From assembly GCF_030811475.1 (NCBI RefSeq), contig NZ_JAUSQV010000001.1, positions 3,920,880 through 3,952,879 on the forward strand: a stretch of 32,000 nt of DNA, in the 5' to 3' direction. The notes beneath the pieces are model-generated. The model did no database searches. It had not been told where the DNA came from and saw nothing but the letters and a program-made list of their open reading frames with translations. How positions within the stretch are numbered: position 1 is the first letter of the stretch; each line of letters begins with the position of its first letter. The translations under genes and the position numbers were made by a program. The DNA comes from Nakamurella flavida. GTDB taxonomy: Bacteria > Actinomycetota > Actinomycetes > Mycobacteriales > Nakamurellaceae. Positions 18,996 through 28,958 of this stretch are shown piece by piece.

Positions 18996-19125
18996 CCGCT
19001 CGACCCGGCTGGGCTTCACCGAGGGGCAACCGAACGTAATGATCTGATCACTGTCAGGCATTCCCGGGGTGGTCGTCCGTCCGTTCTCCCGAGAGGGTGC
19101 CCTGGCCCTTCCGGGAGATCCGATC

Positions 19126-22100
19126 GTGAAGACCCGTCGCCGACCGACCTTGCCCGGCGCCCTGGCCGTCCTGCTGCTGGTGGGCGGTCTGGTGCTGGCG
19201 CCGCCCCTCGCCGGGGCCGCCTCCGCCGCGCCGGGCGACGTCGTCGACTCCGGCCCGGGCTGGACCATCACCGAGACCGCCGACGGCTACCGCATCGAAC
19301 TCACCGTCGCCGATCCGCTCCCCGTCCGATCGGCCGAGGCCGGGCTCGAGGTGGACGGCGTCGACCTGACGTCCGTGTCGGTGTCCGCGGACCGACGCAG
19401 GGTGCAGGCGGAAACCCCCGACCCCGCCGTCCGGAACACCGACACCGTGGTGCTCACCTGGGACGGCGACCCCGCGGTCCAGGCCGCCGACGGGACAGCG
19501 GGCGACACCGCGCCGCCGGCGTCCGGTCCCGTGCTGGACGCCGACCCGGCCGTAGCCGGGCCGTACACCGTCGCCCGCGCCGACTACGACCTCGGTGACG
19601 AGGTCGAGGACCTGGCCGGTCTCGAGGGCCGGCGGGGCGAGATCCGCGGCGCCGTCTACTACCCCGCGGAGAAGACCACGGCCAGTCCGGTGGCGCTCTT
19701 CCTGCACGGTCGGCACACGGGCTGCGTCAGCGGACCCGAGCAGTGGCCGTGCACGGGTGGCGCATCCATCCCCAGCTATCTGGGCTACGACCAGCCCGCC
19801 CAGGCGCTGGCCAGCAACGGGGTGGTCGTGGTCTCGGTGTCCGCCGACGCGATCAACGTCCTCGACAACTTCGCCTCCGACGGGGGTACGCAGGCCCGGG
19901 GGCAGCTGGTCCTGGACACGCTGACCCGCCTCGCCCAGGCCGACACCGTCGGCGCGCCGGGCTTCGACCCGGTGCTCCGCGGCCGGCTCGACCTCACCCG
20001 GGTCGGCCTGATGGGCCACTCCCGGGGCGGCGCCGGCGTGGTGCGCGCGGCCCGGATGAACTCCCAGCTGGACCAGCCGTTCGGCATCCGGTCGGTCTTC
20101 CCGCTCGCCCCGACCAACCCCACCCGGGAGACCGCGCCCGGCGTGGCCACCGCGGTCCTGCTGCCCTACTGCGACGGGGACGTCAGCAGCCTGGACGGGC
20201 AGCACTTCGTCGACGACGCGCAGGGTGCCTTCGACGACTCCGTCCTGCGGACCTCGCTGCTGGTCATGGGGACCAACCACAACTACTTCAACACGATCTG
20301 GTCGCCGGGCGGCTTCTCCGTCGCCACGTCCGACGACTGGTCGTACGTGGACGAGGACCAGAGCAATCCGGTCTGCGGACAGAACGCACCCGGGCGGCTC
20401 GACCAGGCCGCCCAGCGGGCCGTGGGCACGGCCTACCTGTCCGGCTTCTTCCGCCTGACCCTGGCCGACGACACCCGGTTCCTTCCGCTGTTCGACGGTT
20501 CCCGGTCCACGGTGGCCTCGGCCCGGAACGCCGACGTGCGGGTGGCCGCGCAGGCCCCGGCGGACGACCGGATCGATCTCGCGCCGACCGCGTCCACGAC
20601 GCTCCTGGCTTCGGGGGTCCAGGCCGCGGTGTGCACCGGATCCGGCACCGCGGCGCTCTCGGCGGCCACGGCGTGCTCGACCCTGGCGCCCGACCAGGTG
20701 CCCCACTGGGGACCCGCGTGGAGCGCCGGTTCCCTGCCCACGTCCTCCGCCTTCCGGATGCGGTGGGACGCCGCCGGCGGCTCCCTGGACCTTCCGTTCG
20801 CGGTTGGTTCCCGCGACGTGTCCACCATGACCGATCTGACCTTCACGCTGGCGCCGGACGAGGCGGTGGCCGGCAGCACGGACGTCACGGCGGAGGTGTA
20901 CGACGGGACCGGGACGACCCGCTCGCTGGACCCCGCCCTCCTCGACGACGCCCTGCGGGTGCTGCCCGGAACCACCACCCCGCTGCGCCGGGTGGTGCTG
21001 CAGCAGGTGCGCGTGCCACTCAGCTCGCTGGCCGGCCTCGACCTGACCGACATCCGCGGGATCCGGTTCCGGTCGGGCACGGACACCGGCGGGGTGTACA
21101 TCGCGGACGTGGCCGCCACCCGCAGCAGCGTGGGACGGCCCGAGGTGCGCAAGCTGCCGACGCTGTCGCTGGCCCCGACCGGGGTCCGGCAGGTGGCCGC
21201 CACCCGGGCGGGCTCCCTGGCCGTGCTGCTGGACGAGCCCTCCCCCCGACCGGTGACGACCTGGATCGTCACGCACGCGCAGGCGGGCGTCTCGACCAGG
21301 ATCACGGCCACGACGAAGGTCACCGTCCCGGCCGGACAGCGGTGCGCGCCGGCCTCGTTCCCGGTGCCCGGCGCGGGAGAGGAGGGGGTGTCGGTGGCCC
21401 GGATCGACGCCGACGGCGGTCTGATCACCGCGGCCCTGCCCGGCATCGCCACCGCGGAGGTCACCGTCCAACCCGCCGACCTCGGTGACGACGGCCCGCA
21501 GGTGGGCGAGCAGGGTGACGTGTGCGCGGAGGCGCTCACGCCGATCGGGACCCTCGGGGTTCCCGGCGGGGAGCTGCGGCCGGGCGACGCCTTCACGGTG
21601 ACCGGATCAGGCTTCCGGGCCGGGGAGACGGTGACGCTGACCGTCCCGGGAGCCGCGGACGTGACCGCCCTGGCCGACGGGGACGGGGCCGTCCGCATCG
21701 CCGCCGCCGTCCCGGCGGATGCGTCCCCGGGTGCGGCGGAGGTCACCGCCGTGGGGTACGGCTCATCACTCCGTGCGACCGGGTCGATCACCGTCACCGC
21801 TGCGGCCCCGCCGACCAGCAGCGATCCGTCGACCAGCGATCCGGCCACCAGCGATCCGTCGACCAGTGACAGTTCGACCACGTCCGATCCGGCCACGTCC
21901 GATCCGGTCACCTCCGATCCGGCGACCTCGTCGACCACCACGACTCCGGTGGTGACCAGCACGGTCACCGCGGTGGTGGTGCCGGTGGTCCGGACGACCT
22001 CACGGGACGCCGCGGCCGTCCGGTCGGGGTCGCTGGCCCACACCGGGGTCGACGTCGGGGGTCTGATCTCGGCGGGCGTGCTGCTCATCGGGGCGGGCCT

Positions 22101-22146
22101 CACGGTGGTGGTCACCACGCGCCGTCGGACCCGCCGGGCGCACTAG
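19126..22146 (+). CDS. Cell-wall-anchored secreted alpha/beta hydrolase (lipase/polyesterase-like) with a C-terminal LAHTG sorting signal
   Basis: GTG 19126 with GGGAG 8 nt upstream. Signal peptide VKTRRRPTLPGALAVLLLVGGLVLAPPLAGAASA. Nucleophile elbow GHSRGG, with candidate Asp (YCDGDV) and His (GTNHNYF). An Ig-like segment and an SDPxT repeat linker follow. LAHTG (22033-22047) plus a hydrophobic helix and the RRRTRRAH tail form a sortase substrate signature. Confidence 0.85.
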   Translation: MKTRRRPTLPGALAVLLLVGGLVLAPPLAGAASAAPGDVVDSGPGWTITETADGYRIELTVADPLPVRSAEAGLEVDGVDLTSVSVSADRRRVQAETPDPAVRNTDTVVLTWDGDPAVQAADGTAGDTAPPASGPVLDADPAVAGPYTVARADYDLGDEVEDLAGLEGRRGEIRGAVYYPAEKTTASPVALFLHGRHTGCVSGPEQWPCTGGASIPSYLGYDQPAQALASNGVVVVSVSADAINVLDNFASDGGTQARGQLVLDTLTRLAQADTVGAPGFDPVLRGRLDLTRVGLMGHSRGGAGVVRAARMNSQLDQPFGIRSVFPLAPTNPTRETAPGVATAVLLPYCDGDVSSLDGQHFVDDAQGAFDDSVLRTSLLVMGTNHNYFNTIWSPGGFSVATSDDWSYVDEDQSNPVCGQNAPGRLDQAAQRAVGTAYLSGFFRLTLADDTRFLPLFDGSRSTVASARNADVRVAAQAPADDRIDLAPTASTTLLASGVQAAVCTGSGTAALSAATACSTLAPDQVPHWGPAWSAGSLPTSSAFRMRWDAAGGSLDLPFAVGSRDVSTMTDLTFTLAPDEAVAGSTDVTAEVYDGTGTTRSLDPALLDDALRVLPGTTTPLRRVVLQQVRVPLSSLAGLDLTDIRGIRFRSGTDTGGVYIADVAATRSSVGRPEVRKLPTLSLAPTGVRQVAATRAGSLAVLLDEPSPRPVTTWIVTHAQAGVSTRITATTKVTVPAGQRCAPASFPVPGAGEEGVSVARIDADGGLITAALPGIATAEVTVQPADLGDDGPQVGEQGDVCAEALTPIGTLGVPGGELRPGDAFTVTGSGFRAGETVTLTVPGAADVTALADGDGAVRIAAAVPADASPGAAEVTAVGYGSSLRATGSITVTAAAPPTSSDPSTSDPATSDPSTSDSSTTSDPATSDPVTSDPATSSTTTTPVVTSTVTAVVVPVVRTTSRDAAAVRSGSLAHTGVDVGGLISAGVLLIGAGLTVVVTTRRRTRRAH
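21820..21927 (+). repeat. In-frame 15-nt tandem repeat encoding (S-D-P-x-T)n linker
   Basis: Seven units, all inside the hydrolase CDS and in frame. They read AGCGATCCGTCGACC / AGCGATCCGGCCACC / AGCGATCCGTCGACC / an 18-nt variant / TCCGATCCGGCCACG / TCCGATCCGGTCACC / TCCGATCCGGCGACC. Confidence 0.8.
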
Positions 22147-23125: not shown

Positions 23126-23770
23126 ATGACGCTGGACGCAGGACCGCCCACCCGGTGGGAGCAGGAGTACACCGGCCAGGACTGGGCGGACTACGCCGAC
23201 CGGTTCGCTCGCGAGTTCGCCGAGGGGGTCGATCACGACGGCGAGGCCCGTTTCCTGGATGTGCTCGCCCCGCGCGGCGCGGCGATCCTGGACGCCGGCT
23301 GCGGCACCGGGCGGGTGGCCGCCGGCCTGCACCGTCGTGGGCACCGGGTCGTCGGGGTGGACCGGGACGCCGGCCTGCTGGCCATCGCGGCCCGGCAGTA
23401 CCCGGAGGTGCGGTACCTGCGGGCCGACCTGGGGTCGGTGACCGCCGACGTGCTGCGCAGCGCCGGTGCGCCCGAGCGGTTCGACGTCGTGGCCGTCCCC
23501 GGCAACGTGATGGTGTTCCTCGCCCCGGGTAGCGAGCGCGACGTGTTGACGGCGCTGGCGACGCTGCTGGTGCCGGGTGGCCGGCTGGTCACCGGCTTCG
23601 CGACCGACCGCGTCTACCGCGTGGCCGACTTCGACGCCGACTGCGCCGCTGTCGGGCTCGTGCTGGAGCACCGCTTCGCCACCTGGCACCTGGACCCGTG
23701 GATGGACGACGCGGGCTGGGTGGTCAGCGTCCTGCGTGCACCGGCGGGCGCGGAGCCCGACCCCCTTTAG
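23126..23770 (+). CDS. Class I SAM-dependent methyltransferase
   Basis: 214 aa with motif I ILDAGCGTGRVAAGL and motif post-I VVGVDRD. The substrate is unknown. Confidence 0.85.
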   Translation: MTLDAGPPTRWEQEYTGQDWADYADRFAREFAEGVDHDGEARFLDVLAPRGAAILDAGCGTGRVAAGLHRRGHRVVGVDRDAGLLAIAARQYPEVRYLRADLGSVTADVLRSAGAPERFDVVAVPGNVMVFLAPGSERDVLTALATLLVPGGRLVTGFATDRVYRVADFDADCAAVGLVLEHRFATWHLDPWMDDAGWVVSVLRAPAGAEPDPL

Positions 23771-23781
23771 ACTGGCTTCCC

Positions 23782-24861
23782 GTGACCCTGACCCTCGGCA
23801 TCGTCGGCCTCCCCAACGTCGGCAAGTCCACCCTGTTCAACGCGCTGACCAAGGCCGACGTGCTGGCCGCGAACTATCCGTTCGCCACCATCGAGCCCAA
23901 TGTGGGCATCGTCCCGCTGCCGGATCCGCGGCTGGACAAGCTGGCCGAGCTGTTCGACTCGGTGAAGATCGTGCCGGCCGTGGTGTCGTTCGTGGACATC
24001 GCCGGCATCGTCAAGGGGGCCAGCGAGGGTGCCGGGCTGGGCAACAAGTTCCTGGCCACCATCCGCGAGGCCGACGCGATCTGCCAGGTCGTCCGCGTGT
24101 TCGCCGACGACGACGTGATCCACGTCGACGGCCGGGTGGATCCGATGGCCGACATCGAGACCATCAACACCGAGCTGATCCTGGCCGACATGCAGACGCT
24201 GGAGAAGGCGATCCCGCGGCTGGAGAAGGAAGCCCGGATGCAGAAGGACCGCCGCGCGGTCCTCGAGGTCGCCGTCGCCGCCCAGGCCGTCCTGGACTCC
24301 GGCCGGACGCTGTTCTCGGCGCAGAAGACGATCGACCTGGCCGTGCTCAAGGAGCTGTCGTTGATGACGACCAAGCCCTTCCTGTACGTGTTCAACGCCG
24401 ACGAGTCGGTGCTGACCGACGACGCCCGCAAGGCCGAGCTGAAGGCGGCCGTCGCCCCGGCCGACGCGGTATTCCTGGACGCCAAGGTCGAGTACGAGCT
24501 GCTGGAGCTGGACGACGAATCCGCCCTGGAGCTGCTCGAGTCCGTCGGCCAGGAGGAGCCGGGCCTGCACGCCCTGGCCCGCGCCGGCTTCCACACCCTG
24601 GGCCTGCAGACGTACCTGACCGCCGGGCCCAAGGAGTCGCGGGCCTGGACGATCAAGCAGGGCGCCACCGCCCCGCAGGCCGCCGGCGTCATCCACTCGG
24701 ACTTCGAGAAGGGCTTCATCAAGGCCGAGGTCATCTCCTACGACGACCTCGTCGCCGCCAAGACCATCGCCGCCGCCCGTTCCGCCGGCAAGGCCCGCAT
24801 CGAGGGCAAGGACTACGTCATGCACGACGGGGACGTGGTGGAGTTCCGCTTCAACGTGTGA
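23782..24861 (+). CDS. ychF: Redox-regulated ribosome-binding ATPase YchF
   Basis: GTG 23782. (V)TLTLGIVGLPNVGKSTLFNALT..., the YchF-type G domain, and the C-terminal TGS-like end DGDVVEFRFNV. Confidence 0.95.
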   Translation: MTLTLGIVGLPNVGKSTLFNALTKADVLAANYPFATIEPNVGIVPLPDPRLDKLAELFDSVKIVPAVVSFVDIAGIVKGASEGAGLGNKFLATIREADAICQVVRVFADDDVIHVDGRVDPMADIETINTELILADMQTLEKAIPRLEKEARMQKDRRAVLEVAVAAQAVLDSGRTLFSAQKTIDLAVLKELSLMTTKPFLYVFNADESVLTDDARKAELKAAVAPADAVFLDAKVEYELLELDDESALELLESVGQEEPGLHALARAGFHTLGLQTYLTAGPKESRAWTIKQGATAPQAAGVIHSDFEKGFIKAEVISYDDLVAAKTIAAARSAGKARIEGKDYVMHDGDVVEFRFNV

Positions 24862-24907
24862 AACGAGGGTGTTCATTGTGGTCAGAGGGCATGTGCGGTA
24901 TCTGCTT

Positions 24908-24929
24908 GTCCGCAGATAGTCCGCAAGAA
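24908..24929 (+). repeat. Left copy of a 22-bp direct repeat (iteron-like, two GTCCGCA half-sites 11 nt apart)
   Basis: GTCCGCAGATAGTCCGCAAGAA matches 26492-26513 at 21 of 22 positions. It lies 47 nt after the ychF stop, next to the integrase fragment. Confidence 0.7.
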
Positions 24930-24948
24930 TCTCGCTGGAAGCTGCGAC

Positions 24949-25236
24949 CATGAGGGCGTCGGCGGCACGTCGGGTGCGATCTTCTGCAGTCGGCCACAGG
25001 TGCGAGTAAGTCCCGAGGGTGGTCGTCGCAGACGCGTGGCCTAGGGCACGCTGCACCGTGACCACGTCGCAGCCGGCATCCCACAGGGGTTCAGGTGGCC
25101 GGGCGATGTGTCCCTCGCGAAGATGGCGGGCCGGTGCCAGGATGCAGACATGGTCGACGACACCGGCAAGGACAGTCAGATTTGGCTTGGCGAACGGCCG
25201 CCAACGTGGCAGATCGTCGGTTCCGTCGTCGGGGGC
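24949..25236 (-). pseudogene. Tyrosine recombinase (phage-type integrase) C-terminal fragment
   Basis: My hand translation of the minus strand gives ...ARHLREGHIARPPEPLWDAGCDVVTVQRALGHASATTTLGTYSHLWPTAEDRTRRAADAL. This is the LGH...T...Y.H catalytic-Tyr box of tyrosine recombinases. The frame is closed upstream by TAG at 25237-25239, so no N-terminal or core-binding domain remains. It has no stop of its own and runs on antisense through ychF. Confidence 0.6.
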
Positions 25237-25386
25237 CTACTTGCTTTCGCGAGCATCGCCTGGGGGATCGGCCACAGGCACTTCGCCGCAGCCACAGACA
25301 CCGTATTTTGGCTCGCGTGCCTCATGCTCGTACTACCCATACTGATCCCCCTGCCCAGGCTCATCCGTACCTGGCGCAAGCTCTGA
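25108..25386 (+). CDS. Possible small two-TM membrane protein (92 aa, or 78 aa from ATG 25150)
   Basis: Two clean hydrophobic helices, IVGSVVGGLLAFASIAWGIG and TVFWLACLMLVLPILIPLP, then a basic tail RLIRTWRKL. There is no obvious SD and the 5' part overlaps the integrase fragment on the other strand. Weak call. Confidence 0.35.
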   Translation: MSLAKMAGRCQDADMVDDTGKDSQIWLGERPPTWQIVGSVVGGLLAFASIAWGIGHRHFAAATDTVFWLACLMLVLPILIPLPRLIRTWRKL

Positions 25387-25510
25387 CTTGGCCGGGACAG
25401 GAACTCTCTCGGTTCGCCACGCTGTTCACGTAACCTCTGCCCTCCCGCTGCCCCTTCGGGCGTGTACCCGTTTTGATCACGAGGAACGAAAACGTGCGGA
25501 GGCAGTCCCG

Positions 25511-26341
25511 TCAGCCTCCAATCTCTCCCTTGGAGTCATATGCTCGGTAGAAGCCAATCTCAAATTTCTGTACCGTTTGCTGCGAGTCAATATCATGAGA
25601 CCATTCCTCGAGTAAGACGTGCGCAGGCTCCCAATCGCGGCCATGACGGCCTGGCGAGACAACCGAGCCCCCCTCAGGAAACATGTAATCCCCCGTGGGT
25701 AACGCCAGGATTTCTCGGATCGGTACGTCTCGCATTGGAACAAAATCCTCCTCGGTGAGGAAGTCAAGCGATGGCCACTCGCGCAGCTTGAGTCCGGGTA
25801 CCCGTTTTCCGCGGTTTCCGTGATCTTTCAATCGCTCCTCGTTGCAGAAGACGACGGTCGAAGTCGCCTGGTCCAGGTAGAATTCGACGTAGTAATTTGC
25901 GAGCTGGTCAATCCATCTCACTCGGTTCAAGAGTGTTTTTCGGTCCTTGTACCAGAGGTTGAAATGGACCATGAGCTCAGCACCCTTGTGAGATGACGAT
26001 CGCTTGTATTTCTGAACACTCTTAATGCTCGCCGGCCCTGACCGTTGCGAGACCGTCTCAGTACGGCGGATGAAAAAATATATCGGGATTTTTGCACCAA
26101 GAGGTGGAAGCTCGACCTGTCTTGGTTTCTCCGCTGTGCCCATGGGCCCGAGCACCACCCCCGCGGAGGCTAAAGCCTCCTCTGGTTCGGAATCGACAAA
26201 CAAGGGCAGAGTCATGGGAAGATGCCCAGTGACTTTCTCGTCAGAGCACTTTTCCCATCCTTGCAAACAGCCACCGCACAGGCCGCCCGCTTCGGGCTCT
26301 AGTCTGCCCTGGCACCGGAGGCAGGCCGCAAAATCCCACAT
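25511..26341 (-). CDS. Orphan 276-aa protein: N-terminal four-Cys zinc ribbon plus an unrecognised ~240-aa domain
   Basis: A 276-codon open frame in ~45% G+C DNA is very unlikely by chance. C7-x2-C10-x11-C22-x2-C25 (ACLRCQGRLEPEAGGLCGGC). AAGG lies ~10 nt upstream of the ATG at 26341. The stop is embedded in a GGAGGC/GCCTCC hairpin followed by GCACGTTTTCGTT on the minus strand. Confidence 0.7.
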   Translation of the reverse strand: MWDFAACLRCQGRLEPEAGGLCGGCLQGWEKCSDEKVTGHLPMTLPLFVDSEPEEALASAGVVLGPMGTAEKPRQVELPPLGAKIPIYFFIRRTETVSQRSGPASIKSVQKYKRSSSHKGAELMVHFNLWYKDRKTLLNRVRWIDQLANYYVEFYLDQATSTVVFCNEERLKDHGNRGKRVPGLKLREWPSLDFLTEEDFVPMRDVPIREILALPTGDYMFPEGGSVVSPGRHGRDWEPAHVLLEEWSHDIDSQQTVQKFEIGFYRAYDSKGEIGG

Positions 26342-26491
26342 CTGACCGACCTTAGCCAGGCGCGGCCAGAACTGTAGGGCACTCGTACAACGTGCGTGTT
26401 GTCCTCACCTTGGGCGGCCTTAGCCCGCCCCGACGTGCCGTCTCGCTAAAGAGGGCTCGGACAGGCGGCAGACCCAAGTTGATCTTCGCTG

Positions 26492-26513
26492 GTCCGCAGA
26501 AAGTCCGCAAGAA
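26492..26513 (+). repeat. Right copy of the 22-bp direct repeat
   Basis: GTCCGCAGAAAGTCCGCAAGAA has one mismatch to 24908-24929. It lies in the 374-bp non-coding gap between the orphan gene and the TA module. Confidence 0.7.
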
Positions 26514-26691
26514 GGCCGTGACAGCCCGTTTCTGCCCCTTCCTCCCAAACGGTCGGCGTGCACATCCTCCAAGATCAGGACATGTAAACGTCACTACCCG
26601 ACGCTACCCAACGACCCCCTGCGACGTCCCGCTTCAACGTCTGACCGAGTCGGGCGTCGTTGGTCGTCCTCGGAAGCGTTTCTTCGGTCGT

Positions 26692-26708
26692 GGTAGCACG
26701 GTGCTACC
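26692..26708. promoter_or_regulatory. Palindromic candidate operator of the TA operon
   Basis: GGTAGCAC-G-GTGCTACC has perfect 8-bp arms and ends 7 nt before the antitoxin ATG (26716). This is the usual location for autoregulation by RHH antitoxins. Confidence 0.5.
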
Positions 26709-26715
26709 GTGATGC

Positions 26716-27075
26716 ATGGCCAGGACCAGTCAGCCCACCCGCCTCCCGGCCGACATCTATGACGCTGCGGTGGCAGCGTCCGCGATCTCGTCGCGCTCGG
26801 CGGCGCAGCAGATCGCCCACTGGGCGCGCATCGGTCGTGAGCTGGAGATGTCCCCCCAGGTGAACCACCGGGCGATCAATCACGTTCTCGTCGGCGCCGG
26901 GTCCTATGACGCGCTGAGCGAGCAGGAGCAGGCCGTGGTTCGTCAGGAGTGGACCGAACGCGCGACGGCTCTCCGGGGAGAGCTGAACTACGCAGCCGGT
27001 TTCACTGCTGCAGGGGAGTCCTACTCGGAACTCGACGCCGACGGCAGTGTCGTCGTGCACCCGGCCCGCGACTGA
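26716..27075 (+). CDS. ParD-like (ribbon-helix-helix) type II antitoxin
   Basis: 119 aa. The N-terminal TRLPADIYDAAVAASAISSRSAAQQIAHWARIGRELE is an RHH-type DNA-binding module. The stop shares one base with the downstream ATG (TGATG). Confidence 0.72.
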   Translation: MARTSQPTRLPADIYDAAVAASAISSRSAAQQIAHWARIGRELEMSPQVNHRAINHVLVGAGSYDALSEQEQAVVRQEWTERATALRGELNYAAGFTAAGESYSELDADGSVVVHPARD

Positions 27076-27641
27076 TGCCTCTGCTGCACCTCCTCGCCGG
27101 TCCCGACGGTTCCGGGAAATCCAGCTATGTCGCAGATGTGCTGCTGCCCGCCACACGCCTGCCGTTCGTCAATGCCGACGAGATCGCGGCATCACACTGG
27201 CCGGAGAATCCTGCGGTGCACGCCTACGAGGCGGCGCAGATGGCCGAGGAACAGCGTCGGGCCCTCATCGCAGCGGGGACATCCTTCATCTCCGAGACTG
27301 TGTTCTCCCACCCGAGCAAGGTGCAGCTCGTCACCGACGCCGCCGGGGCCGGCTATCTGGTGCACCTGCACGTCGTCCTGGTTCCCGTCGAACTGACCGT
27401 GCAGCGGGTTCGTGAGCGTGTCCGGCGTGGTGGTCATGTCGTCCCCGAGTACAAGATCCGCGAGCGCTACGAGCGGCTCTGGTCTTACGTCCGAGACGCG
27501 ATCGTCGTGGCCGACATCGCAGAAGTGTTCGACAACACCAGTGCGGACGCCCCGTTCCGCTTGTGTGCGTCGTACCGGCACGGCGCACTCGAGGGTGCTC
27601 CGGAGTGGCCGGCCTGGACTCCCGCTGCCCTGTGCGGTTGA
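27075..27641 (+). CDS. Zeta-toxin-family / AAA_33-like P-loop kinase (putative toxin)
   Basis: 188 aa. MPLLHLLAGPDGSGKSSYV (Walker A at the extreme N-terminus), FVNADEIA, and a size and layout typical of zeta-toxin-domain proteins. It is translationally coupled to the antitoxin. Confidence 0.78.
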   Translation: MPLLHLLAGPDGSGKSSYVADVLLPATRLPFVNADEIAASHWPENPAVHAYEAAQMAEEQRRALIAAGTSFISETVFSHPSKVQLVTDAAGAGYLVHLHVVLVPVELTVQRVRERVRRGGHVVPEYKIRERYERLWSYVRDAIVVADIAEVFDNTSADAPFRLCASYRHGALEGAPEWPAWTPAALCG

Positions 27642-27821
27642 TCGGGCGGCACCGCCGCGCATGACGGTGGGGGGTGGCGCCCGGACCTGAACGGGCGCTG
27701 ATCGAACCGGGAAGTGAGCCGAGGAGTTGAACTCGCCGCACGCGAGGAATGGGTCCGGGTCCACTCGTGTTCGCACCAGGTACGGGCCACCCCCGTCATC
27801 GACGTGCGAACGAGGAGACCC

Positions 27822-28958
27822 ATGCCCGACAGCCCCACCCTGCCCACCGGCGACAACGCCGCCTACCGCGCCCCGACCCCGACCCGCACGCCGCCGGAGG
27901 GCGCGCACGCGCTGGTCGTCGGGGCCACCGGCATCACCGGGTCGGCGCTGATCGACGAGCTGGTCGAGGCCGGCTGGCGGACCACCGGGCTGTCCCGGCG
28001 TTCGCTGGACATCCCCGGCGCCGGGCACGTGGCCGCCGACCTGACCTCGTTGGACAGCCTGCAGAGCGCGCTGGACGGGCTCCAGCCCACGCACGTGTTC
28101 ATCACCGCGTGGTCACGGCAGGAGACCGAGGCGGAGAACGTCCGGGTCAACGGCGGCATGGTGCGCGACCTGCTCGCCGTCCTCGGCCCGCAGGGCTCGC
28201 TCCGGCACGTCACCCTGGTCACCGGGTTCAAGCACTACCTCGGGCCCTTCGAGGCGTACGGGATCGGCGAGCTGCCGGACACCCCGTTCCTGGAGGACGC
28301 CGAGCGCCGGCCGGTGGAGAACTTCTACTACGCGCAGGAGGACGAACTCACCGCAGCCGCTGCGGCGCACGGGTTCTCGTGGTCGGTGCACCGTGCCAGC
28401 ACCGTCTTCGGGCACGTGGTCGGCAACGCCATGAACATGGCCTCGACCCTCGGTGCCTACGCCGCGATCGTCAAGGCGACCGACCGGCCTTTCCTGTTCC
28501 CCGGATCGCAGGTCGCGTGGAACGGCGTCGTCGACATCACCGACGCGGAGTTGCTCGCCGACCACCAGCTCTGGGCGGCGACCACCCCGCAGGCGGCGGA
28601 CACCGAGTTCAACATCGTCGACGGCGACCTCGTGCGCTGGCGTCGGCTGTGGCCGCAGCTGGCCGAGTACTTCGGGGTCCGCGCGGAGGGGCCGGGGGAG
28701 ACCCCGGTGCCGCTGGAGGAGCAGATGGTCGGGGCCGAGGCCGTGTGGGAGAAGCTCGTCGCCGAGCACGATCTCGCCGAGCCCGATCTGTCCCGCGTCG
28801 CGTCCTGGTGGCACACCGACAGCGACCTGGGCCGGGAGACCGAGGTGTTCGGGGACATGACCCGCAGCCGGGTCGCCGGGTTCACCGGCTGGGTCAACAC
28901 CACCGGCTCCCTGCTGGACATGCTCGGCCGCTACCGCGCGGACCGCATCCTGCCCTGA
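27822..28958 (+). CDS. SDR-family oxidoreductase of the PRISE (progesterone 5-beta-reductase/iridoid synthase-like) type
   Basis: ATG 27822 with GGAGA 5 nt upstream. VVGATGITGSAL (Rossmann), THVFITAW...EAENVRVNG, GFKHYLGPFE, NFYYAQED and WSVHRAS all fit the PRISE family pattern. Confidence 0.85.
   Translation: MPDSPTLPTGDNAAYRAPTPTRTPPEGAHALVVGATGITGSALIDELVEAGWRTTGLSRRSLDIPGAGHVAADLTSLDSLQSALDGLQPTHVFITAWSRQETEAENVRVNGGMVRDLLAVLGPQGSLRHVTLVTGFKHYLGPFEAYGIGELPDTPFLEDAERRPVENFYYAQEDELTAAAAAHGFSWSVHRASTVFGHVVGNAMNMASTLGAYAAIVKATDRPFLFPGSQVAWNGVVDITDAELLADHQLWAATTPQAADTEFNIVDGDLVRWRRLWPQLAEYFGVRAEGPGETPVPLEEQMVGAEAVWEKLVAEHDLAEPDLSRVASWWHTDSDLGRETEVFGDMTRSRVAGFTGWVNTTGSLLDMLGRYRADRILP

Follow-up and report, generated by a model that had tools for sequence, protein, structure and literature searches.

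What is the 276-codon gene that lies in a stretch of low G+C content just downstream of ychF in Nakamurella flavida, how did it come to be there, and what might it do? The locus is part of a window of 32,000 nucleotides (contig NZ_JAUSQV010000001.1, positions 3,920,880 to 3,952,879), by which we mean the whole stretch of DNA that was analysed, and all positions below are those of the window unless stated otherwise. We find that the open reading frame (ORF) is a genuine, intact, horizontally acquired gene, and that no other recognisable cargo has survived intact in the 1.78-kb relic of an integrative element at ychF. The best overall explanation for its presence is that it is surviving accessory cargo of that relic, with a role in genetic conflict as the most likely function, a reading we put forward tentatively.

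The ORF listing returns the 831-nt minus-strand frame at exactly the coordinates that an original prediction, made from the DNA letters alone, had assigned to a real and compositionally foreign gene, and the two 60-nt G+C counts on which that prediction relied are also exact (43.3% at 25561-25620 and 46.7% at 26041-26100). Over its full length the ORF is 55.1% G+C, compared with 72% for the genome, and the values at the three codon positions (61, 43 and 62%) form a pattern typical for coding DNA; in the host genes flanking the islet, G+C content at third codon positions (GC3) is 93-95%, as against 62% here. A 500-nt G+C profile of the window places the dip, to 54-60%, at 25501-26500 alone, with values of about 72% elsewhere. 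Because this stretch is the least GC-rich of the window, stop codons should be frequent in it, and a stop-free run of 276 codons at the local composition has a probability of 8.8e-6 per frame; when 25400-26450 was shuffled (n=2000), an ORF of at least 276 codons appeared in 0.1% of the shuffles. A Shine-Dalgarno-like motif precedes the start codon, and no sigma-70-type promoter consensus was found for the gene. The protein lacks a hydrophobic segment and is predicted to be soluble and cytoplasmic, with three parts: an N-terminal four-cysteine (Cys4) zinc ribbon, a beta-rich core, and an acidic tail. We also note a GC-rich hairpin (GGGCGG-CCTTAGC-CCGCCC, 26412-26430) without a T-run, about 70-90 nt 5' of the ORF, between the gene and one of the arm-type repeats described below.

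Relatives of the protein are few and all of them are metagenomic. An exhaustive phmmer scan of 1.84 billion cluster representatives with the 276-aa protein gave ten matches: the gene itself, eight related clusters, and one spurious CUB-repeat protein. The closest clusters are P0002 (41% identity, E=1e-58), P0003 (E=5e-30) and P0004 (E=1e-17), with the remaining five at E=1e-4 to 2e-6; each contains 1-3 sequences that are unnamed or labelled 'hypothetical'. A word-index homology search recovered the gene itself only when given the single protein and two members only when given a nine-sequence profile, this tool being under-sensitive here. A scan of 185,579 species-representative genomes, among which the window's own stretch appears to be masked, yielded no relative for the patterns that were used. 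The window protein matches no family in Pfam, NCBIfam, PADLOC or PHROGs, and Pfam, NCBIfam and PHROGs have no match for any family member. The view that the protein belongs to no nameable family is thereby upheld, and its description as an orphan needs amending, in that the family is indeed unnamed but eight distant clusters exist. Judged by these comparisons, the family is extremely rare and unclassified, not a strict orphan, and with about nine clusters per 1.8 billion representatives comparative inference is near exhausted.

The alignment of family members has five invariant residues (P73, W130, E153, H174 and R180) and five near-invariant ones (G68, R74, R134, D145 and Y151). All of the invariant residues, and the four cysteines, are intact in the window protein, whose ORF is full-length relative to its nearest relative. 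Residues 1-190 of the window protein are basic (pI 8.9), the C-terminal tail is acidic (pI 4.4) and poorly conserved, and the whole-protein isoelectric point (pI) is 5.1-5.9 in eight of the nine family members. The proportion of nonsynonymous differences (pN) is well below that of synonymous differences (pS) in every pair, with a ratio of substitution rates (dN/dS) of 0.28-0.48 where synonymous sites are unsaturated, which argues that family members code for protein under constraint. Genes of the close subfamily are 54-58% G+C on contigs of 64-72% G+C, so that the gene is compositionally foreign in each setting in which it occurs.

The NCBI Prokaryotic Genome Annotation Pipeline (PGAP) includes only residues 43-276 of this protein (start at Met43, 234 aa, hypothetical protein JL107_10710). 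We regard that start as placed too late, because the Cys4 ribbon, which lies upstream of it, is conserved in all full-length relatives. In tblastx comparisons 26240-26341 is conserved with the loci of the closest cluster (L001/L002), and in P0004 the ribbon lies in frame 5' of the annotated Met (VWNNEFCLRCQ...CSDCL; L004 57-143). The P0009 protein, of 123 aa, is a copy truncated at its N-terminus, and with the P0004 ribbon recovered it follows that every full-length family member has one. From this conservation we take the ATG at 26341 as the correct start, and a real gene with the 276-aa start is close to certain. Late start calls appear to be systematic in the family: 26216-26341 (about 42 codons) is missed in the window gene, P0004 is affected likewise, and both lose the Cys4 ribbon.

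The four-Cys zinc ribbon itself is present as originally described. A short spacer separates its two CxxC knuckles, the relatives conserve this arrangement, and metal binding is predicted. Among curated zinc-ribbon models, Pfam gives no match at E<=1 and NCBIfam none for the 276-aa protein, and the sole weak match in a profile search of PDB is the zinc-ribbon ribosomal protein uS14 (E=0.36). Cys4 modules such as that of uS14 similarly have paired CxxC knuckles 11-17 residues apart; the 276-aa protein differs from them in joining its ribbon to a beta core without a known relative.

How the gene arrived can be read from the DNA on either side of it. The last codons and stop of ychF recur beyond the gene as an att core (Table 1), and a pattern search of the whole window allowing up to three mismatches finds this core in two copies against 0.01 expected; the second copy is either a displaced ychF 3' end or one borne by the element. 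Just inside each core is a 22-bp arm motif, GTCCGCAGANAGTCCGCAAGAA, made of two GTCCGCA units 11 nt apart, of which the window holds exactly two copies against 0 expected. Next to the left arm are the last ~50 aa of a tyrosine integrase, in a frame that is open only back to 25237. This remnant aligns to positions 140-168 of 172 in the Pfam Phage_integrase model (E=0.0045), below the gathering score, as is expected of a fragment of only 30 aa, and the Box II LGH...Y catalytic-tyrosine region is present as ALGHASATTTLGTYSH. It has neither a complete catalytic domain nor core- or arm-binding domains, and tblastn and frame reading detect no integrase similarity upstream of ~25119 or elsewhere in 24000-28000. 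The ORF listing and Pfam give no relaxase or Rep gene between the cores, and Rfam has no match in 24000-28500. There is no tRNA in the window or in related loci, which indicates that these elements do not target tRNA genes. A 432-aa 'ORF' (23767-25065, minus strand) that begins in the stop-less integrase remnant and runs antisense through the whole of ychF is an artefact; spurious long frames are typical of 72% GC DNA.

In a lambda-type attP the core lies between P and P' arms carrying arm-type integrase sites, and int reads toward att. When the ends of the islet are joined, the order is arm repeat, 113 nt, core, 43 nt, arm repeat, with the integrase remnant reading toward att. Because the joined ends rebuild a lambda-type attP, we interpret the islet as what internal deletion has left of an element once inserted at the 3' end of ychF, and it is very probably a 1.78-kb remnant resembling the cis-mobilizable elements (CIMEs); the mismatch of its two cores at 2 of 19 positions weighs against this. 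The decayed integrase of the original prediction is thus recovered as a Phage_integrase fragment, and the repeats that it had called iteron-like are better read as the att-core and arm-type repeats of an integrative element.

A second mini-element of the same build carries a distant family member, about 27% identical (locus L011). Its core is a perfect 25-nt direct repeat (L011 99-123 and 2446-2470), and an arm motif with 11-nt periodicity, GCGGAGCAG-N2-GCGGAGCAG, is found just inside each end (262-282 and 2388-2408). The family gene shares the interval between the ends with an unrelated ORF of 313 aa and with an integrase truncated at its 5' end (profile positions 120-169), and two terminator-like hairpins follow the right core. 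The target-gene terminus matches positions 311-344 of 344 in Gln-synt_C; ychF was considered as the target and is ruled out by this match to the glutamine synthetase C-terminus. The L011 and window arm motifs have GCGGA in common on the coding strand, a likeness of sequence that hints at related integrases.

The remaining loci are diverse. One relative (L005) resides on a 14.7-kb, apparently intact element that encodes a serine recombinase, a Prim-Pol/D5_N primase, an XRE regulator, and an OLD/AriA/GajA-like ATPase directly 5' of the family gene; the right copy of its terminal repeat is inside the 3' end of the serine recombinase gene. Others are associated with a tyrosine integrase, with a region like that of a plasmid or an integrative and conjugative element (ICE), or with an ImmA/IrrE-type fusion gene (Table 1). 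No convincing att or arm repeats were found in L002, L003, L004, L006, L007 or L009. The P0007/P0013/P0014 subgroup occupies a syntenic locus, whose neighbours (L014 8640-19733; also L006 and L015-L019) include an SH3_3 protein and a convergent four-gene operon for uncharacterised proteins (129, 148, 192 and 163 aa), as well as a HisKA_3/GerE two-component pair and a RamC-like lanthipeptide synthetase.

In an all-vs-all blastp comparison of every ORF, the family gene alone is common to the loci, and no upstream, downstream or convergent partner is conserved across them. Candidate partners were rejected on this ground, each of them lacking a counterpart in other loci: upstream of the family gene, a 248-aa gene in L001/L002 and small ORFs in L007/L008; downstream of it, the convergent genes and, in L014, an ORF of 68 aa. 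The family is therefore a solitary single-gene module found in unrelated mobile or island contexts.

Table 1. Positions of the features discussed, in the window unless another locus is named.
Feature	Position	Strand	Remarks
276-aa gene (276 codons)	25511-26341	minus	ATG start; 831-nt span confirmed in ORF listing
Cys4 zinc ribbon codons, C7-x2-C10-x11-C22-x2-C25	26267-26323	minus	Cys invariant in 7/7 aligned members
Conserved core, ~aa 60-185 (~125 aa)	25787-26164	minus	From alignments; predicted all-beta
Shine-Dalgarno-like AAGG	26350-26353	minus	8 nt 5' of the ATG at 26341; read from sequence
ychF (ribosome-binding ATPase), integration target	23698-24861	plus	Pfam YchF-GTPase_C 1.3e-38 and MMR_HSR1; PGAP call
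att core copy 1, last codons and stop of ychF (EFRFNV*), 19 nt	24843-24861	plus	Direct repeat
att core copy 2	26626-26644	plus	17/19 identical; reads S-R-F-N-V-stop in the ychF frame
Arm-type repeat copy 1, tandem GTCCGCA(G/A), 11-nt spacing	24904-24929	plus	43 nt inside the core; overlaps the end of the integrase remnant
Arm-type repeat copy 2	26488-26513	plus	113 nt inside core copy 2; 147 nt 5' of the 276-aa ORF start
Tyrosine-recombinase C-terminal remnant (...LWDAGCDVVTVQRALGHASATTTLGTYSHLW...)	24950-25119	minus	Keeps only Box II and the catalytic-Tyr region
Small membrane-protein ORF, 92 aa (PGAP 78 aa)	25108-25386	plus	Convergent with the 276-aa gene; one or two hydrophobic helices
ParD-like antitoxin	26716-27075	plus	Pfam E=3.9e-16
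Zeta-toxin/AAA_33 kinase	27072-27641	plus	Pfam E=1.1e-12
L011 (P0008-type, ~27% identical)	L011 1-2558		Twin mini-element at the 3' end of a glutamine-synthetase gene
L005 (P0006)	L005 2249-16980		14.7-kb element; perfect 20-nt direct repeat at its ends; apparently intact
L007/L008 (P0010)			Tyrosine integrase and HTH_17; SLFN_AlbA_2 protein
L001/L002 (P0002)			ICE/plasmid-like region: relaxase, RepA_C, AEP-helicase, insertion sequence (IS) elements, RES-Xre pair
L013 (P0009)	L013 1548-3372		Family copy overlaps the 3' end of a 492-aa HTH_3, Peptidase_M78 (ImmA/IrrE-type) and DUF2188 fusion gene
L006, L014-L019 (P0007/P0013/P0014)			Locus syntenic across 7-8 metagenome contigs; nearest integrase 9 kb off

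The protein was also modelled. AlphaFold2, run on the nine-sequence alignment, predicts that residues 74-170 hold about eight strands, forming an all-beta core, with a pLDDT of 75-87 in the core, a mean of 64.5 and a pTM of 0.61, the five models ranging from 51 to 64. The modelling and fold search suggested with the original prediction gave no match: in Foldseek comparisons with PDB and BFVD the best probabilities are <0.6 and TM-scores <0.2. As modelled, the fold is unmatched and not demonstrably new. Neither a profile match nor a canonical motif of the nuclease superfamilies (HNH/His-Me, PD-(D/E)xK, TOPRIM, GIY-YIG) is present. Readings of the conserved residues as PD-(D/E)xK, HNH, TOPRIM, ART or HEPN sites were rejected for a misfit in residue order and with the beta-rich prediction, and for PD-(D/E)xK, HNH, ART and HEPN no profile lends support.

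What, then, is the gene for? It occurs with differing recombinase types, replication genes and att sites, and so appears to be accessory and to move independently; that it is a cargo gene dispensable for integration, replication and transfer of the element is, in our judgement, highly probable. A conflict or defence-type function, as a stand-alone defence, exclusion or addiction factor, is one we favour without thinking it likely. The hints in its favour are the toxin-antitoxin (TA) pairs near the gene in the window and in L001, and the OLD/AriA/GajA-like ATPase immediately 5' of the family gene in L005. The gene is, moreover, intact in two relics with wrecked integrases, the ychF islet and L011, which fits a host-beneficial or addictive function. 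The invariant W130, E153, H174 and R180 form an enzyme-like set, and the conserved residues as a whole (many Arg, with Asp, Glu, His, Trp and Tyr) hint, as does the basic core, that the substrate is a nucleic acid or a nucleotide. In such a mechanism the zinc ribbon would contact nucleic acid or a partner protein, and the beta core would bind or cleave a nucleic-acid or nucleotide substrate through the cluster of E153, H174, R180 and W130; that the protein is catalytic rather than merely binding is a proposal we make with little confidence. Carried furthest, the idea would make this a new stand-alone enzyme family, with the ribbon, a new beta fold and a Glu/His/Arg/Trp site, borne by mobile elements of high-GC bacteria as a single-gene weapon against rival phages or elements and kept in the ychF and glnA relics for host benefit or addiction, all of which together is unlikely.

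Several observations weigh against this interpretation. The PADLOC 2.0 catalogue has 0 families at E<=1 for the window protein, and among the neighbours of its relatives, from few flanked loci, PADLOC finds one of 20 to be defence-type (the L005 ATPase), with no match for the other 19. The C-terminus of that ATPase gives a weak Toprim signal, from which the protein is probably of the OLD type, self-contained and in need of no partner; the family gene as its effector was accordingly rejected. No relatives were found among IMG/VR, the INPHARED phages or the PLSDB plasmids, and the P0007/P0013/P0014 subgroup sits in a stable syntenic locus with no recombinase within 9 kb, not an obvious island. 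The designation of W130/E153/H174/R180 as an active site is drawn from conservation alone. An AlphaFold2 re-run on residues 1-190 was worse (pLDDT 57, pTM 0.30), and since removal of the tail degraded it the fold is not robust; the moderate confidence of the model also makes the missing fold match weak evidence. The unameliorated G+C content implies a recent arrival, so that intactness need not reflect selection in N. flavida. Stand-alone defence or abortive infection (Abi) cargo, of the kind represented by the single-gene systems of PADLOC and DefenseFinder, serves as a working analogy for a family that is solitary, rare, foreign, mobile and sometimes beside defence or TA genes; it differs in that the family has no sequence or fold relation to any catalogued system. 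Of the proposal that this is a defence or abortive-infection gene, the mobile-element hotspot context was right and the support for the role is circumstantial. Nothing that was named beforehand as telling against it, such as confident homology to a housekeeping, prophage structural or transposase family, came to light, and the defence hypothesis stays unproven.

Among the alternatives, the one that survives best, although we judge it improbable, is an element-maintenance or regulatory DNA-binding protein that controls excision, replication or cargo expression of the parent element by binding the arm repeats or an operator. The gene starts near an arm repeat (147 nt away in the window and 26-87 nt in L011), is co-directional with the integrase in both mini-elements, and has relatives that lie amid genes for regulation and replication in integrative elements; nucleic-acid binding is frequent in zinc ribbons, and a basic core would suit such a role. 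A dedicated core factor should, however, co-vary with the machinery it serves, and the family instead accompanies unrelated recombinases (tyrosine and serine), replication and transfer genes, and att and arm sites. The arm repeats on both arms are already accounted for by integrase binding, the protein has no helix-turn-helix or other known DNA-binding domain, the whole proteins are mildly acidic in all but one of the nine members, and the invariant W/E/H/R residues are more pocket-like than a DNA-reading surface.

An anti-defence or host-manipulating protein, used on entry of the element against host immunity or to alter host physiology, for example by inhibiting or modifying a host enzyme, would equally be a single-gene, fast-evolving, patchy and compositionally foreign cargo of diverse elements, and the acidic tail and the defence-type or TA genes adjoining some loci could be taken the same way. 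We consider it distinctly unlikely, in that there is no similarity to phage protein families or viral structures, the family is absent from the phage and plasmid collections searched, and the gene is kept intact in two immobile relics, where an entry-phase function is useless. It is also quite doubtful that the gene is a decaying passenger without current function in N. flavida, its frame open only through recent arrival: the element is wrecked, with its integrase deleted and its cores diverged, GC3 is still remote from that of the host, the search for a consensus promoter gave none and P0009 is a truncated relative, but the window copy retains the family-invariant residues and four cysteines over a full-length ORF, and the independent mini-element L011 likewise kept the gene and lost its integrase. 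Finally, the idea that the frame is open by chance, or is a piece of some other gene read out of frame, is effectively refuted and has next to no probability, for although long spurious ORFs such as the 432-aa frame antisense to ychF are common in this high-GC window, the gene lies in its least GC-rich region, its length is rarely reached in shuffles, and it has homologues to E=1e-58 with pN below pS.

Accessory cargo of a mobile element, with a tentative part in genetic conflict, thus remains the reading we prefer, and the surroundings of the gene add some detail. The type II TA pair reported in the neighbourhood is confirmed by Pfam as a ParD-like antitoxin and a zeta-toxin kinase. It adjoins the right core and lies outside the remnant, its GC3 values are intermediate (0.82 and 0.78), and no third copy of the att core bounds its segment in the window; the pair probably represents foreign DNA that came to this hotspot earlier. 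The perfect palindrome GGTAGCAC-G-GTGCTACC (26692-26708) ends 8 nt 5' of the parD-like start codon and is likely to be the autoregulatory operator of the pair. The small ORF at 25108-25386 has a hydropathy maximum of 2.25 and a GC3 of 0.785, and overlaps the open antisense frame of the integrase remnant; it has no family matches and no counterpart in related loci, and is either co-cargo or possibly spurious. Further upstream, a 1025-aa secreted protein (19069-22146, plus strand) has a weak PETase-like hydrolase match in Pfam; towards its C-terminus, repeats rich in Ser/Thr/Pro are followed by LAHTG, a run of hydrophobic residues and a basic tail, which looks like an actinobacterial sortase-anchoring signal.

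The locus is of a known kind, an integrase-less relic of an integrative element with an uncharacterised cargo gene, and such uncharacterised cargo ORFs are common on mobile elements; it is the protein family that is unclassified. Should the family prove to consist of enzymes for defence or exclusion, the immune repertoire of actinobacteria, much less explored than that of enterobacteria, would gain a new fold and mechanism. Whatever the function, the annotation can be corrected, as PGAP and metagenome gene callers miss the ribbon, and the two relics are clean examples of integrase-less, att-flanked elements at the 3' ends of protein-coding housekeeping genes (ychF and glnA) in high-GC bacteria.

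CIMEs are defined as elements that keep attL and attR and have lost their integration and transfer genes (PMC5704250). In the ychF islet both att copies are present and the integration and transfer genes are gone; like a CIME, it is bounded by direct copies of the target-gene 3' end and has internal arm-type repeats and no functional integrase, and, as in the CIME accretion model, it adjoins further foreign DNA in the form of the TA pair. It differs in residing in an actinobacterium, in having ychF as its target, in keeping one intact cargo gene, and in the two differences between its 19-nt cores. Compared with a lambda-type attP, a single repeat pair per arm is detected and the N-terminal arm-binding domain of the integrase is deleted, for which reason we infer, and do not observe, that the repeats are integrase arm sites. 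The resemblance extends to the arm-core-arm layout, to the 3' end of the integrase abutting one arm, and to the repeats themselves, tandem units one helical turn (11 nt) apart, and the mini-element at the glutamine-synthetase gene has the same layout.

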